In this document: piece after piece, positions 679 through 51,005 of the stretch
How the letters are laid out: the number at the start of each line of letters is the position of its first letter
Position numbering within the stretch: the stretch's first letter is position 1
Notes under the pieces: generated by a model
What the model saw: only the letters and a program-made list of their open reading frames with translations
The model's database searches: none
Told to the model about the DNA's origin: nothing
Source of the DNA: Octopus vulgaris
Lineage: Eukaryota
Direction of reading: 5' to 3'
DNA: 64,000 bases
Assembly: GCA_951406725.2 (NCBI GenBank)
Contig: OX597837.1
Coordinates: forward strand, 41,974,001-42,038,000
Translations under genes and position numbers: made by a program

Positions 679-788
679 TCTTATTGTCCAAGATGTTGTG
701 CCACATGACTTACTTGAAACTTTGCAGTTGCAAACTTCTTAATCACAAAGTGATAAAACACACACACACAAACGCTCACACAAATATA

Positions 789-1116
789 AGGGATGTGCTT
801 GAATGGCAAGTGTTATGATCCGAGATCATCTGTTGGAACTAAAACGACTGCAATGTGAAAGACACGAGTTAAGCCATTCAGAAACACACAAAGACGGTTA
901 ACTTCACTTTAACATTTATTGTATGTAAAACGCTGTCAAAATTTTCCGTGCTTGAAACCGCGACCTGGTCACTGACAAATTGTGCCGCAGTTTTGTGCAG
1001 TGACCAGGTTGCAGCTTCAAGCAATGCAAATTTTGACAGCAGATTACAAACAATAAACGCTTAAGTGAAGCAAATTGTCTTCGGGGTGTTTCTGAATGGC
1101 TAACTTGTGTCTTTCA
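789..1116. mobile_element. Foldback element FB copy 1 (palindrome 856-1116) with outward-facing hammerhead-like motifs
   Basis: TGAAAGACAC...GTGTCTTTCA inverted arms; homologous to 20444-20779 and 34216-34480. Confidence 0.8.
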
Positions 1117-1126
1117 TGTTCCAATC

Positions 1127-7292: not shown

Positions 7293-7299
7293 GATCAAA

Positions 7300-7510
7300 A
7301 TAAGCAACAAGGATATCCAAGTTAGTGTAGTACAATTGTTTCATGCTACATCATTTTATTGAACACTGTAAGTATTACATCAGTTTTAAAATGTCGAGCA
7401 ATCTTCAGCCACTCGACATTTTAAAACTGATGTAATACTTACAGTGTTTAATAAAATGAAGTGGCATGAAACGATTGTACTACACTACCTTGGATATCTT
7501 TGTTGCTTAT
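7300..7510. mobile_element. Head-to-head foldback of PLE-like end (family P2), 99-bp arms, 13-nt loop
   Basis: Arms 7300-7398 and 7412-7510 are near-perfect reverse complements; a single copy of the arm occurs at 38524-38645. Confidence 0.85.
7327..7412 (-). ncRNA. Type I hammerhead motif with long stem II
   Basis: Minus strand GTGG-CTGAAGA-TTGC...GCAT-GAAA-CAATTG-TA-CTAC: canonical core, perfect palindromic stem III ACAATTGT, GUA triplet. Confidence 0.65.
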
Positions 7511-7618
7511 TAAGATTATAATCACCCCATTTGATTTATATGGATAATACCATACAAAATTCTGGTGCCTTTAACTTAAGTACCATATTCATCTGAATCT
7601 AAATTTTGCTGAACTTGT

Positions 7619-7660
7619 AGGGAATGGGTGAAGAAAAAATTCTTTCTGTGTGTGTGTCTG

Positions 7661-7702
<42 letters not shown>

Positions 7703-7778
7703 TGTGTGTGCATATATATATATATATATGCACACACAGACACACACACAGAAAGAATTTTTTCTTCACCCATTCCCT
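7619..7778. repeat. Inverted duplication centred on (TA)n
   Basis: AGGGAATGGGTGAAGAAAAAATTCTTTCTGTG...CACAGAAAGAATTTTTTCTTCACCCATTCCCT. Confidence 0.9.
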
Positions 7779-9531: not shown

Positions 9532-9881
9532 CATGCTGGAGTACCACCTTTAGTCAAGCAAATCAGGACTTATTCTTTGTAAGCCTAGTACTTATTCTAC
9601 CAGTCTCTTTTGCTGAACCGCTAAGTTATGAGGAGATAAGCACACCAGCATTGGGTGTCAAGCGATGTTGGGGGACGAACATAGACACACAAACATATAC
9701 ACACACATACATATATACAACGGGCTTCTTTCAGTTTCCATCTACCAGATCCACTCACAAGGCTTTTGCTGGCCCGAGGCTATAGTAGAAGACACTTGCC
9801 CAAGGTGCCACGCAGTGGGACTGAACCTGGAACCATACAGTTTGTAAGCAAGCTACTTACCACACAGCCACTCCTACGCCT
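9532..9881 (-). mobile_element. SINE-A, near full length
   Basis: Reverse match to 27744-28147. Confidence 0.9.
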
Positions 9882-11379
9882 ATTACTTATATTTCCTTGT
9901 ACTATTATTGCCATATTGCAGTTCACCAATTACAGTTTATTATTTAAGCTTATGTTGATTCCTCCATGGTATTGTTTTGCATTTATAATAAAATAAATAT
10001 GTACAAATTATAAAAATGATAAAAGAAAATATACAATACACAGGAGTAGTGGAAAACTGACTCAGCAATGGTTGATGAGAATGCAAAATGCATTTCTACC
10101 TTGTTGGGTGTTGTCAGTAGCATGCACTCACAGCTAACAATATGCTAAGATAAAATCTACCTTCACTGATATACAGAAAAACAGTGAGTAAACAATCACT
10201 GATACTGTGAATAAAAATGCCTTATATGCAACAGAAGAAGTATTAGGTAAAAAAAAAAAAGAAGCTACCTATGTATCATACTTAATGCAAACACATTGGA
10301 AAAAAGCAAATTTACTGTGGTTTAGATTTTGCTACACAAAATGTTTGACTTGAAACCAGCAGTAACTATCCATGGTGTTTCATGATGGAAAGCTTCCTGT
10401 TTCCCTGTCCTCACATTTCGATTAAATCTTCCATCATACTTATTATACAAATACCAGCTAAATAGTGAAGAAGTTAAGTAATTTAGTTTAATCTCTCCAA
10501 ATGTTTCATTATTTCCGAAATCACCAAAACACAGATTCAGTGTATAATTTCATTAGAGACACGATTGTCATGATAGAGTTAAAGTTCTTTGGTCGGATAA
10601 TTTTAATGTAAAGGTCAAAACAGAATAAGGAAGGAGGAGGCGGAGGTTGGGGGTTGGGGGAGAAAAACCCAAACAAACCATAAGTAAAGATTAAGTTAAT
10701 AGGCTTCTTGGTTTGGGACATAATTAGGAATATTTTGATAAAACATCAGATTTTTAGATAACATCTCAATTTTATAGTGAAACGTACTGAAGTAGTTTAT
10801 AAAGATCATAGAATTTACATTTATATTGAGAGGATTAAGGTATCAATTTAAGTCTATGACAAAACAAAACAAACAAAAAAAGTAGATAAACAAAAATATT
10901 TTCTGGTCTTGAATAAGCGGAGATTAGGGAAAGGAGAAATTACTTTAATTGAGTGGAGCCAGTAAACCAGATTCTGTGACTCCAGCAGAAACTACTATAA
11001 TTAAGATAACATGAGACAAACAATGATTGACCCCGTGTGTTCTTCCACCATATTCCTAGATTGGCTGACAGAGAAGTAAGTATTATTCTTTTATGCTGGT
11101 TTCAGTCAACAGATTATGGCCATGCTGGAGCACTGCTTTTAAAGGATTTTAGTCTGTTTCATTGATGACATGTTTTGATTGTAGGTTTGGTTAATCAGGA
11201 GTGACTTGGAATTGAAATAAATGAAAAAAAAACTCCAAAACAAAACAAATAATGTGATTCACTTACACACAACAAAAGCATCAGTTCAGATATACACAAA
11301 CCAAACCCAGTTAATCGCTATGTACAATATATAATAAATGACATCCAACAATTTACAAAGGACGTTTTATAAAAAAAAT

Positions 11380-16730: not shown

Positions 16731-17395
<665 letters not shown>

Positions 17396-19901: not shown

Positions 19902-20443
19902 TCTCAGAGATTGAAGCTTTCTCTGATTACACGTGAAGCCAAATTGCAGGTCCATAGAAGTGGAGATACTTTCTGGCTAGCGCTGATTACTATAAATAAT
20001 CAAAATAGATCATTTACAAGAAAATGGTAATGCCATTCCTCGACAACTACTTACCATTTTAGCGGTAGTCGATTAGTCATTTATCATATCTGACAAAACT
20101 TAAATTTATGTTTAGTTCTTGTCATACATATGTTTGACCTTTCTGATACAACGGTTTCGGAGAATTTGCACAAAAATACAGACGAACGCGAAGACAGTTC
20201 ATTTAAGATTAGACAGACTGTTGGAAAGTAAGTGATTACGTCAGGTCAAGTGATACGAATGACAATAGGAAGAAGAAGAACAACAACAAGAACAACATCA
20301 ACGATTCACAGGATTCGGCAGTTCTTTAAATAAGAGGAAATGAGAATTTCAATGTGAATGAAATCGAGATCCAACTAAGAATACACCGATGATGATGATG
20401 ATGATAATAATAATAACAACAACAACAATAACAATAACAATAA

Positions 20444-20779
20444 TTACGGAGATGTACTTGCATAGCAAGTGGCCTGATCTGAGATCGTGTGCTTGAACGA
20501 AAACAATTGCGGCGTGGAAGGTTGTTTGTAAACCATTTAAGAAACACACAAAAGCCGTTCGATTCACTTCAACATTTTAGTTTAATTTGTCAAAATATTT
20601 TCGTCGCTTTAAGACCGCGACCTGTTCACTGACAAAAATCCGTGCTGCGTCTGTGTCAGTGAACAGGTCGCGGTCTTAAAGAGACGAAAACATTGACAAA
20701 TCAAACTTAAATGTTGAAGTGAATAGAATGGCTTTTGTGTGTTTCTTAAATGGCTTATAAACACCTTCCACACTGCAAT
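20444..20779. mobile_element. Foldback element FB copy 2 (palindrome 20506-20779) between AAT/AAC repeats
   Basis: ATTGCGGCGTGGAAGG...CCTTCCACACTGCAAT arms around spacer CCGTGCTGCG. Confidence 0.85.
20586..20636 (-). ncRNA. Type I hammerhead motif with G3-C8 swapped core (GUGAACA)
   Basis: Minus strand TTTGTCA-GTGAACA-G-GTCGC-GGTCTTAAA-GCGAC-GAAA-ATAT-TT-TGACAAA: 7-bp stem I, 5-bp stem II, palindromic stem III AATATT. Confidence 0.65.
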
Positions 20780-20951
20780 AATAATAATATTTAAATATAA
20801 ATATAATAATAATAATAACAACAACAACAACAACAACAATAATAATGATAATAATGACAGCACCAAAACCACAAAACATGTGCATACAACTCAGTAGTGC
20901 AGTGGAAGCATATAAAAAAATGACTACTGAATAATAATAATAATAATAATA

Positions 20952-29193: not shown

Positions 29194-29512
29194 TAAAAAC
29201 GGTAAGATAACAAAAGAAAGAAAGAGACCTCAATATTATGTAAATAGAGGAAATTTATCTGTAAAATAATATGTTACAATTATTTGGTAGCCAAGACAAA
29301 ACTCTGAGTTTCGGATGCCGAGGTGGAAATCCACACCACAATCTCTTCGTATAAAATCTAAAAAATTCCCTCCCAAGATCAAAGGCTTGGAAGATTTCGA
29401 AAGAGATGGCCAGATAACCGAAGAGATGGTGGTGTGGATTTCCACCTTGGCATCTGAAACTCAGAGTTTTATCTTGGCTGCCGAATAATTGTCACATATT
29501 ATTTTATAGATA
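29190..29512. mobile_element. Head-to-head foldback of PLE-like end (family P4), arms 29256-29349 and 29419-29512, inside (TA)n
   Basis: Arms are reverse complements with few mismatches. Confidence 0.8.
29412..29474 (+). ncRNA. Type I hammerhead motif
   Basis: Stem I AGATAA/TTATCT; core CCGAAGA; stem II GATG...CATC with one extra T; GAAA; stem III ACTC-A-GAGT; GUU triplet. Confidence 0.6.
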
Positions 29513-34215: not shown

Positions 34216-34480
34216 AATTGCAGTTTGGAGGGTGTTTATAAGCCATTTAAAAACGCACAAAAACCATTAGATTCCGTGCTGCGCAGAATTTTGTCAGTGA
34301 ACAGGACGCGGTTTCAAATCGACAAATATATTTTGACAAATTAAATTTAAATGTTGAAGTGAATCTAATGGTTTTTGTGTTTTTAAATGGCTTATAAACA
34401 CCCTTCCACGCTGCAATTGTTTTTGTTTCAGCACACGATCTTAGATCAGGTCACTTGCTATGCAAGTACATCACTGTAAT
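34216..34480. mobile_element. Foldback element FB copy 3 (left arm internally deleted, right arm complete)
   Basis: Spacer CCGTGCTGCG, then TTTTGTCAGTGAACAGG; right end GCAAGTACATCACTGTAAT is the reverse complement of the left end of copy 2. Confidence 0.8.
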
Positions 34481-42007: not shown

Positions 42008-43736
42008 AAATGTGCAGTAATGTGCAGTAGAATTGAACCTGAAATCCCAGGCTTGCAGACCAAGTTTTTTGACCACACAACCATGCCTTGCACTTATGGT
42101 GGAATATTTTTCCTTTCTTTTTTTATTGGATTGCATGCCGTGTCAATGGTCTTTGCAGGCTCTCTGAGATTACAAAGACTGACACAGTTAATGTTCGTCT
42201 TGGAATGATGCTCCATTTAGTCGGAAATAATCGATAAGGTGCTGACAGTTTGAAGTTAAAACCAAAAACCCACACACATATGAAGGACAGAAACACATGT
42301 ACAAACAAAAAAAAACAAAACAAAAAAAAAGCAAAGAAAAAATAAAACCAGTGCTAAATAGAAACTAAAATAAAATTGAAGAAAATCTAAAAAAGAAACC
42401 TTACATCATTTTCAAGGTAGATGTAAAAACATTTGAAAAGTAAATACATTTCTTTTAGAACCATGAACCAGAAAGTAGTGGAAGAGTGTAAAACTGGACC
42501 TCCTTTGCTACCTTGTTAAATGGCCATATTAAGCAGAAAGCAATAAAAATAGAGCAAGCACTTGAGATATTGGCAGAGAATCAAGACGGAATTGCAATCA
42601 ATTCCAAAACTGTTCTGGCATATTAAAACCAAAAGAAGAGAAATTACTAGAAATATATCCTTTGTGGGCTTCAATTATCAGCTAGCCGATGTGAGAGATC
42701 ATCGAGAGAGAGAGAGAGCGGAGGCGGAGAGACAGTGTGTGTGTGTGTGTGTGTGTGTGTGGCAAGCACTTCTATGTATGCCAAGGATATTTAAGTCAAC
42801 ACGTTGCCTGTTGCTTCTAAGTGGCGACGACAAATGCTAGTGAAAGAGTTTATTTGATTAGTGTTGCTCTCCGCTGTTAAGTCTCAAACAAGTTTCCTCC
42901 AGCCATACTGTTTACACGAGAGAATCTATAACCGAAGAGAGTAAGTTTCACAATATATTGATCAGTGCACCAGCAATGGAAAAGAAGAGTCTAATGTGGA
43001 AAAAAACAACAAAGAAAAGAGAAAAAACAAAAAAGAAAAAACCCCAAAATCAAAACCAAACTCAAGGTTCAACACTTGAGGTATGGACTGTGATTACACA
43101 CTATTATTGCGATTTGTTAAAAAATTTCTCAGCTAAACAATAACAGCGTAAACAACAACAATTTCTAAGCCATTAAGGTTGTGGCAATAGAAAGCGTAGG
43201 TGTTTATGCCATATTCAATAAAGTATTTTCTTTATAAATACCTGATGTTACTAACGATGATGATGATGATAATTCGATGTATGATGATGGATGTATTTTC
43301 TAAGGCTTAAAGCCATTTATAAAGACAAAAAGGTGTAGTTAACGAACTCAGTAGATTACATTACAGCTCCTTTACTTTCAAGGTAAGAGAAGAGGTAGGG
43401 TTTGTCGGGGCATCGGATAAGTGCTTTGCATTACTTGTTCCGACTCTTAAAGGGTTTTTGAGTTCAAATCCAGATGAGGTCAACTTTGTCTCCTTTCATC
43501 CTTTGGGGATTGATAAAGTACCGGCTCAGCATGGTGCGTTGGCAGAATTATTAGAGAGTCAGGCGAGATGCTTTGTAGTATCTTTTCTTCCGACTGTGTG
43601 CGTGCTTCACGTTTAGATCTTACATTGTGACACATCCGTCTGCAGTTGTGACCAACAAATAGTACAAGTGGAAAAATCAAAATCAATGGAAATACAATTT
43701 GCTTGGTTTGATTGAAAGATGGTTTCCCTAGGCTAG

Positions 43737-50848: not shown

Positions 50849-51005
50849 TAATTTCTGTATTTGTGAATTAAGGCTACCATTGGTTTCATGTTAAGAAGCA
50901 TAGGAAATTATTATAGTATCTTAAAATTGTTAAGATACTAGGATAATTTCCTACACTTCTTAACAAGAAACCAATGATAGCCTTAATTTACAAATAAAGA
51001 AATTA
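50849..51005. mobile_element. Head-to-head foldback (family P5) with half-hammerhead GAAA-CCA-A-TGG-TA
   Basis: About 75-bp inverted arms around AATTG; ends in (TA)n. Confidence 0.7.

Follow-up and report, generated by a model that had tools for sequence, protein, structure and literature searches.

The palindrome at positions 20444-20779 belongs to a high-copy head-to-head repeat of Octopus vulgaris that, on balance, is probably a solo end piece (pseudo-LTR) of a Penelope-like element (PLE) and carries a minimal type I hammerhead motif with a G3-C8 pair in its core. In the RNA of the parent element this motif is predicted to be a weak self-cutter, assisted by a dimer partner or by protein, and to be inert in hairpin copies such as this one. 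In the following, the window denotes the whole stretch of 64 kb that was analyzed, which is microsatellite-rich animal DNA over its entire length.

Layout of the repeat and comparison with PLE insertions

Three copies of the repeat were found in the window, all of them single inverted pairs, and head-to-tail tandem units were found in none of them:

20444..20779, no strand assigned: copy A, an asymmetric head-to-head palindrome with the long arm left and the short arm right, inside an (AAC/AAT)n tract
20444..20505, minus strand: tail of 62 nt, present on the long arm only, with 89% identity to the tail of copy C and 75% to the tail of copy B
20640..20651, no strand assigned: palindrome centre of copy A, remnant of a self-complementary stretch with its axis at ~20647/20648, ~7 nt being lost here
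786..1124 (approximate), no strand assigned: copy B, older sister subfamily, with GUGACCA cores at 972-966 (minus) and 1000-1006 (plus), helix III palindrome AAUU and the tail on the left arm
34217..34479, no strand assigned: copy C, with the long arm at 34274-34479 (plus) including the tail and the short arm at 34217-34274 (minus) without hammerhead

Copy A had been described as a palindrome and is indeed a long inverted repeat with 86% complementary arms, for which a hairpin fold of -194.5/-192.4 kcal/mol is predicted. All three copies combine one long with one short arm. The short arm stops at the identical place in each copy, 87 nt past the predicted cut of the hammerhead, and the long arms continue for a further 62 nt. 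The position of the centre is also nearly constant, as it lies 14-18 nt upstream of G3 in 3/3 copies and in two subfamilies. The G3-to-G3 distance across the centre is 29 nt in copy A and 27 nt in copy B, and copy C (by hand arithmetic) as well as one joined contig are compatible with original spacings of 33 and 36 nt and a self-complementary middle. For a view beyond the window we aligned the contigs of four public runs (three studies) to 20400-20820 at a likeness of at least 80%. In 97% of the contig depth the G at 20649 is replaced by A, which is the letter needed by the longer self-complementary form. The summed contig depth of the tail relative to the hammerhead arm was 0.50, 0.50, 0.69 and 0.58 in the four runs, which can be taken as a hint only and is what would be expected from one tail per two arms. 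Within 20490-20750, numerous contig joints connect 20637-20648 with scattered positions in the right arm, as in copy C; these would represent either deletions beside the palindrome centre or a variable truncation of the second cDNA. Five of the six outer ends are located at most 15 nt from a simple repeat in comparison to 22% of random places, the ends of one copy not being independent of each other, and the sixth lies inside an imperfect (AAC/AAT)n run. A target-site duplication is not discernible in the three window copies, whose flanks share only low-complexity 5-6-mers.

For PLEs, inverted pLTRs, palindromes at the junction, tails on one side only and targets in microsatellites have been published (PMC3846280, PMC8557442, PMC8969392), and these elements account for 6.83% of the Octopus vulgaris genome (PMC13282606 supplement). 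The octopus copies resemble the insertions of endonuclease-bearing PLEs (PMC3846280, PMC8557442) in their head-to-head arms of ~200 nt, the junction palindrome, the tail on one arm and the microsatellite targets, but differ from them as solo inverted pairs without coding sequence, with a centre that is nearly fixed across copies and subfamilies, and without a discernible target duplication. Furthermore, the tail of 62 nt compares with 30-40 in the usual PLE tail. In the case of the anole Poseidon PLE, the protein cuts AT-rich DNA and extends both strands, and reverse transcription starts at two internal sites, the interval between them corresponding to the tail (PMC11167929). The octopus layout would be in line with this scheme, with a tail matching the stretch between two RT starts, extension of both target strands and AT-rich targets. 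It differs from the anole system in the exchanged 3-8 pair, which is natural and family-wide here and lab-made there (PMC11167929), in the 62-nt tail, and in that no reading frame is tied to the octopus repeat.

The original prediction of a PLE-derived family with a fixed G3-C8 core is borne out as regards the PLE-like layout and G3 as the state of the family (see below), but not by a coding partner, as none of the 130 low-repeat frames of at least 75 aa in the 64-kb window matches an RT or GIY-YIG family. The family motifs gave no matches in metagenome contigs and in prokaryote genomes, and their 8- to 11-mers do not occur in the supplement text searched for PMC8557442 and PMC13282606, the latter amounting to 5,371 characters. 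Viral contigs contained 45 matches to a loose pattern, none of which folds as a hammerhead on inspection, and these were rejected as chance matches. By its layout the repeat resembles an inverted PLE end piece and is a candidate member of the PLEs.

Alternatively, the arm of ~205 nt might not be a truncated PLE but a separate non-autonomous short RNA, SINE-like or retrozyme-like, that rides on PLE enzymes and has a defined 5' end directly upstream of stem I, which we consider quite improbable. The constant position of the centre in both subfamilies would suit such an RNA, as would the fall of contig depth from ~2 million to ~0.01 million across 20625-20655, loose contig ends that lack a common upstream sequence (agreement 0.41-0.45) and the finding that none of the 130 window frames provides a reading frame for it. 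However, contigs stop at perfect palindromes for technical reasons. Moreover, ordinary pLTRs have palindromes at their 5' ends, of 18 and 38 bp in the published cases (PMC3846280), so that a fixed centre needs no separate RNA. The 5' end also does not coincide with the cut site, and a head-to-tail array as in retrozymes (PMC7229834) is absent here.

Apart from the repeat, the window contains a tandem array at 16731-17139 with a GC-rich unit of 63 bp (5.5 copies, 90% matches), which is part of a dispersed repeat, and an inverted repeat at 7619-7778 with a perfect non-repetitive arm of 28 nt around (TG)n/(TA)n, which gave spurious microRNA matches. At least 11 copies of a SINE-like family, which we take to be a cephalopod SINE, are distributed over 3823-60879 (for example 9679-9888).

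The hammerhead motif and its G3-C8 core

The left arm of copy A contains the following motif, and its counterpart in the short arm is damaged:

20586..20636, minus strand: fully parsing minimal type I hammerhead motif with a stem I of 7 bp, a stem II of 5 bp and a loop II of 9 nt
20636-20630 with 20592-20586, minus strand: stem I of the left arm in this parse
20621-20617 with 20607-20603, minus strand: stem II of the left arm in this parse
20623..20629, minus strand: 5' strand of the core, GUGAACA, with G3 at 20629, C8 at 20624 and the free N7 at 20625
20622..20622, minus strand: extra G between A9 and G10.1, a place taken by A, C or U in the published consensus of PLEs
20593..20602, minus strand: GAAA at 20602-20599, palindromic helix III AAUAUU at 20599-20594 and U17 at 20593 in this parse
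between 20593 and 20592, minus strand: predicted cut after UUU, placed by hammerhead numbering
20652..20700, plus strand: damaged short-arm hammerhead of copy A, with the core GUGAACA at 20659-20665, a stem II interrupted by a G-A mismatch, and a loss of 2 nt that affects helix III and the cut site

The minus-strand parse of 20586-20636 places stem I, GTGAACA, stem II, GAAA, AATATT and U17 as originally claimed, and only the extra G at 20622 had been overlooked in this description. The statement that each arm parses applies to the left arm of copy A, which is the one full parse among five core-bearing arms; in the remaining four, damage is seen in stem II, GAAA or helix III, and the hammerhead has been lost from the sixth arm (34217-34274, copy C). 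The two further copies that had been named were recovered, one near 34295-34340 with its GTGAACA core, which is located at 34297-34303 (plus) in the long arm of copy C, an arm that has lost G12 and A15.1, and one at 934-977 with GTGACCA, a change at the free N7 that is present in both arms of copy B. In the arm at 934-977 the G10.1-C11.1 pair is broken and its partner arm has an A13C change. Positions 3 and 8, whose independent variation would have spoken against the motif, keep G3 together with C8 in 5/5 core-bearing arms, and the extra base between 9 and 10.1 is likewise present in 5/5 arms, with the letter G. The G10.1-C11.1 pair and GAAA occur jointly in 2/5 arms and each alone in 3/5. Helix III is AAUAUU in one arm, AAUU in two and damaged in two, with UUU as the triplet.

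To judge the parse against chance, the window was scanned with a strict descriptor in which any base was allowed at positions 3 and 8. The left arm of copy A was the single match. In 150 block-wise dinucleotide shuffles, both strands included, the same descriptor gave two matches. The 3-8 pair was of the Watson-Crick type in one of these, and neither combined a stem I of at least 7 with a stem II of at least 5. The full left-arm parse is therefore far above chance. In addition, an 18-letter pattern with at most three mismatches matched five arms in comparison to 0.22 expected. We rejected a pairing of loop II with a downstream TTGAA, since it is disrupted in both B arms.

The CUGANGA core is present in 0/5 arms, which have GUGAACA or GUGACCA instead, and the motif is thus classed as a variant and not as a strict member of the PLE hammerheads. 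As expected, searches based on CUGANGA miss it: Rfam reported no hammerhead among the 10 matches at 20400-20820 with E values up to 10, and none among the 150 of 480 matches listed for the whole window. No canonical CUGANGA hammerhead parses in the window. A weak profile match at 42570-42671 (E 0.14) was rejected as a further hammerhead, as it lacks both a core and a partner arm.

A DNA element (MITE, fold-back or Helitron-type) whose hammerhead parse would be a coincidence in a single copy seems very improbable to us. In its favor are the long inverted repeats, small hairpins near the long end, among them one of 6 bp at a distance of 12 nt (the tail fold being no better than shuffles, z +0.38), the full parse in one of five arms and the silence of Rfam. 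Helitrons and Helentrons are recognized by a sub-terminal 3' hairpin, conserved termini and a dinucleotide target. Against a DNA element stand the ends of the copies, asymmetric by a fixed 62 nt in 3/3 cases and without a clear target duplication, the 0/150 shuffles with a parse of this strength, and three unrelated palindromes of the window that also have GAAAC and a palindromic helix III.

The first of these palindromes, at 29259-29509, is a head-to-head arrangement flanked by (TA)n runs, its left side being longer by ~70 nt. Its right arm is hammerhead-like: a U4C core (CCGAAGA) is accompanied by a stem I, a stem II that is long and a helix III that is nearly palindromic. The fold of this arm is no better than shuffles. 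In the arms of the palindrome at 7299-7511, CTGATG precedes CATGAAAC by ~40 nt, and a palindromic helix III and A17 are present as well; the succession of these parts is not that of type I. A short palindrome at 50851-51003 contains CATGAAAC, a near-palindromic helix III and A17, has no CTGA core within the arm, and is possibly a truncated relative of the 7299-7511 type.

The published consensus of PLE hammerheads consists of a U-rich flank, a short stem I, CUGANGA, one extra base, G10.1-C11.1, GAAA, a palindrome, NUH and an AU-rich flank (PMC4209133), and the octopus motif agrees with it except for the letters at positions 3 and 8 and for G as the extra base. With the metazoan PLE hammerheads (Cervera and de la Pena, 2014; PMC4209133) it shares a palindromic helix III of 1-2 bp, U17 and paired motifs on opposite strands, and the helix III of copy B, AAUU followed by U, is the same as in the Crassostrea PLE hammerhead (PMC4209133). 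Stem I of copy A is longer, with 7 bp in comparison to 4-5 in PLE hammerheads (PMC4209133). By our own count of Fig. S3 in PMC4209133, 53 of the 56 motifs have C3-G8, two U3-A8, one U3-G8 and none G3, and the extra base is G in 1/54. U17, which had been regarded as a weak cleavage site, is ordinary in these ribozymes, as it occurs in 24 of these 56 motifs including 3/3 molluscan ones; the specific worry is rather the G3-U17 wobble discussed below.

Natural U3-A8 cores are in print (PMC3088659, PMC4209133) and are likewise a covariation that keeps the 3-8 pair. They require two transitions, whereas the octopus G3-C8 pair requires two transversions and allows G3 to mispair with U17 or C17. The animal non-LTR retrozymes (PMC7229834; bioRxiv 10.64898/2026.07.22.740005) are similarly short, non-coding, hammerhead-bearing and PLE-related, but form head-to-tail tandem arrays with canonical cores, in contrast to the single head-to-head pairs in octopus. 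No natural G3-C8 core was found in the published literature searched, which includes portions of PMC6765202, PMC7229834, PMC6155905 and bioRxiv 10.64898/2026.07.22.740005 and covers the papers on PLE hammerheads incompletely. The G3-C8 data published there come from lab mutants, and within this literature a natural family-wide G3-C8 core appears to be new.

State of the 3-8 pair in the family

The number of contigs aligned in the four runs was 17,139, 14,903, 11,209 and 7,466, and the repeat family must therefore be very large. The contig depth suggests a copy number in the order of ten thousand or more, summed depth not being a copy number in itself. A C3 form of the family would require a C>G change at 20629, and no position with a C>G change of at least 5% was found in any of the four runs. 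For G>C the single position at this level in three of the four runs is 20653, outside the core, and the fourth run has a second one, which was not placed. Therefore, G3 is the state of the family and not the result of decay, and the canonical C3-G8 form makes up no sizeable part of the contigs aligned at the threshold of 80% likeness, which a diverged C3-G8 sister family would escape. The per-position differences are those of 40 among 58 entries, and the remaining entries need not be small since the expected change in loop II (20613) is absent from the 40; among the remaining 18, minorities with G3 changed to A or U, or C8 to A or U, could be present. The commonest stem I change among the 40 is 20590 T>C (9-18% of depth), in which the pairing is kept as U-G.

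Among the arms, two subfamilies can be distinguished, A/C and B. None of the 11 scorable conserved core positions differs between them, in comparison to 24/66 downstream positions (one-sided Fisher p = 0.011), a comparison which rests on five arms and on core positions scored by hand from the parse. The changes inside the motif include the free N7 and helix III, which changes from AAUAUU to AAUU and is palindromic in both. This pattern of retention in the aligned arms hints at selection on the core. Other short blocks downstream are also invariant in 5/5 arms, and since they are as invariant as the core, its conservation is not unique evidence. The covariation in the stems that had been anticipated did not emerge: 239 of 500 shuffles reached the observed pairing in the pair count over five arms, the alignment misregistering the B arms, and the single double change in stem II is explicable as two CpG decays.

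These data also bear on the possibility that the repeat is a true PLE end piece whose motif descends from a hammerhead and is dead. In this case the master element would have been inactivated by the flipped pair together with the extra G and the wobble of G3 with U17, and would have spread by hitch-hiking. We regard this as unlikely. Fixation of a double change that keeps the 3-8 pair would be improbable without selection, the two subfamilies keep 11/11 core positions and a palindromic helix III in spite of their divergence downstream, and even the commonest listed change in stem I retains pairing. A dead hammerhead could nevertheless spread in this manner because insertion does not need cutting: catalytic mutants of the anole PLE insert normally in vitro, ribozyme cutting thus being dispensable under these conditions, and no reads ended at the ribozyme cut site (PMC11167929). 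For this reason the possibility stays alive, and it also gains from the invariant blocks outside the core, the lack of a covariation signal in the five arms and the predicted wobble trap. Furthermore, the minimal hammerheads of PLEs cut poorly even with a normal core (PMC4209133).

Predicted activity, proposed insertion mechanism and significance

If the motif of the favored PLE end piece cuts, it would do so under constraints that can be estimated from fold predictions. The G3-U17 wobble has a predicted probability of 0.67 and is favored over the open core by 1.3 kcal/mol; it is the mirror of the published C3-G17 trap (PMC3884650). In copy B, C7 makes an inhibitory GACC/GGUC hairpin possible in the predicted fold. 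The fold of the isolated left-arm motif is modest (z -2.35), with values of -1.45 to +1.34 for the other arms. The AAUAUU duplex is very weak (-0.2 kcal/mol) and is not used in the two-molecule minimum-energy fold. Inside the hairpin of a copy the predicted probability of stem I is near zero, and because any through-transcript would fold into this hairpin of -192 to -195 kcal/mol, ribozyme activity is moot at the loci of the window. A head-to-head copy is also unable to provide the dimer partner, since each of its transcripts contains one sense motif locked to the antisense arm. Judged from these models, activity, if any, would belong to a tandem RNA of the parent element.

The anole PLE ribozyme offers a direct parallel for the exchanged pair, as C3G or G8C alone abolishes cutting and the double change C3G/G8C partly restores it (PMC11167929). 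The rescue by a double swap on which the original prediction relied has thus been demonstrated in a PLE hammerhead, although it is partial, and the G3-C8 core can accordingly work in a PLE setting. The anole ribozyme cut only in the presence of protein (PMC11167929).

We propose the following sequence of events for the octopus repeat. A PLE endonuclease would nick both strands of an AT-rich target, and each target end would serve as a primer, with reverse transcription beginning at either of two internal sites located ~62 nt apart on the element RNA. Priming at the far site in one case and at the near site in the other would explain why one arm has the tail and the other lacks it. The two cDNAs would then be joined by annealing at the self-complementary stretch that directly precedes stem I. 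In the RNA, G3 and C8 would restore the tertiary pair by which the 2'-OH of nucleotide 8 is positioned, helix III, which seems too short alone, would pair between two motifs through its palindrome, and cleavage would take place after UUU between 20593 and 20592. Inverted PLE junctions have been interpreted as a product of self-priming instead (PMC3846280), and the window data do not separate cDNA annealing from self-priming.

As a tentative extension, which we consider possible but somewhat doubtful, the repeat would represent an active natural G3-C8 lineage that was kept by selection through the split of the subfamilies and was amplified to tens of thousands of copies. The flipped core, the extra G and the G3-U17 wobble would in this case form a latch which is opened only by the PLE protein or by a second motif, and the insertions would record two-primer annealing at a built-in palindrome.

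Hammerhead censuses are based on a CUGANGA (or UUGANAA) descriptor, and as Rfam also missed the motif, a whole high-copy family is invisible to them. The layout with one long and one short arm around a fixed centre may be seen as a genomic trace of the two RT starts that were measured in vitro. Each copy, if transcribed, might give rise to a double-stranded RNA of ~130 bp. If the motif cuts, the classic C3G/G8C rescue mutant would have a counterpart in nature, and a gap of two transversions would be crossable in nature. Together with C3-G8 sister families, a cutting motif would furthermore allow a direct test of whether PLE hammerheads are selected for cleavage.
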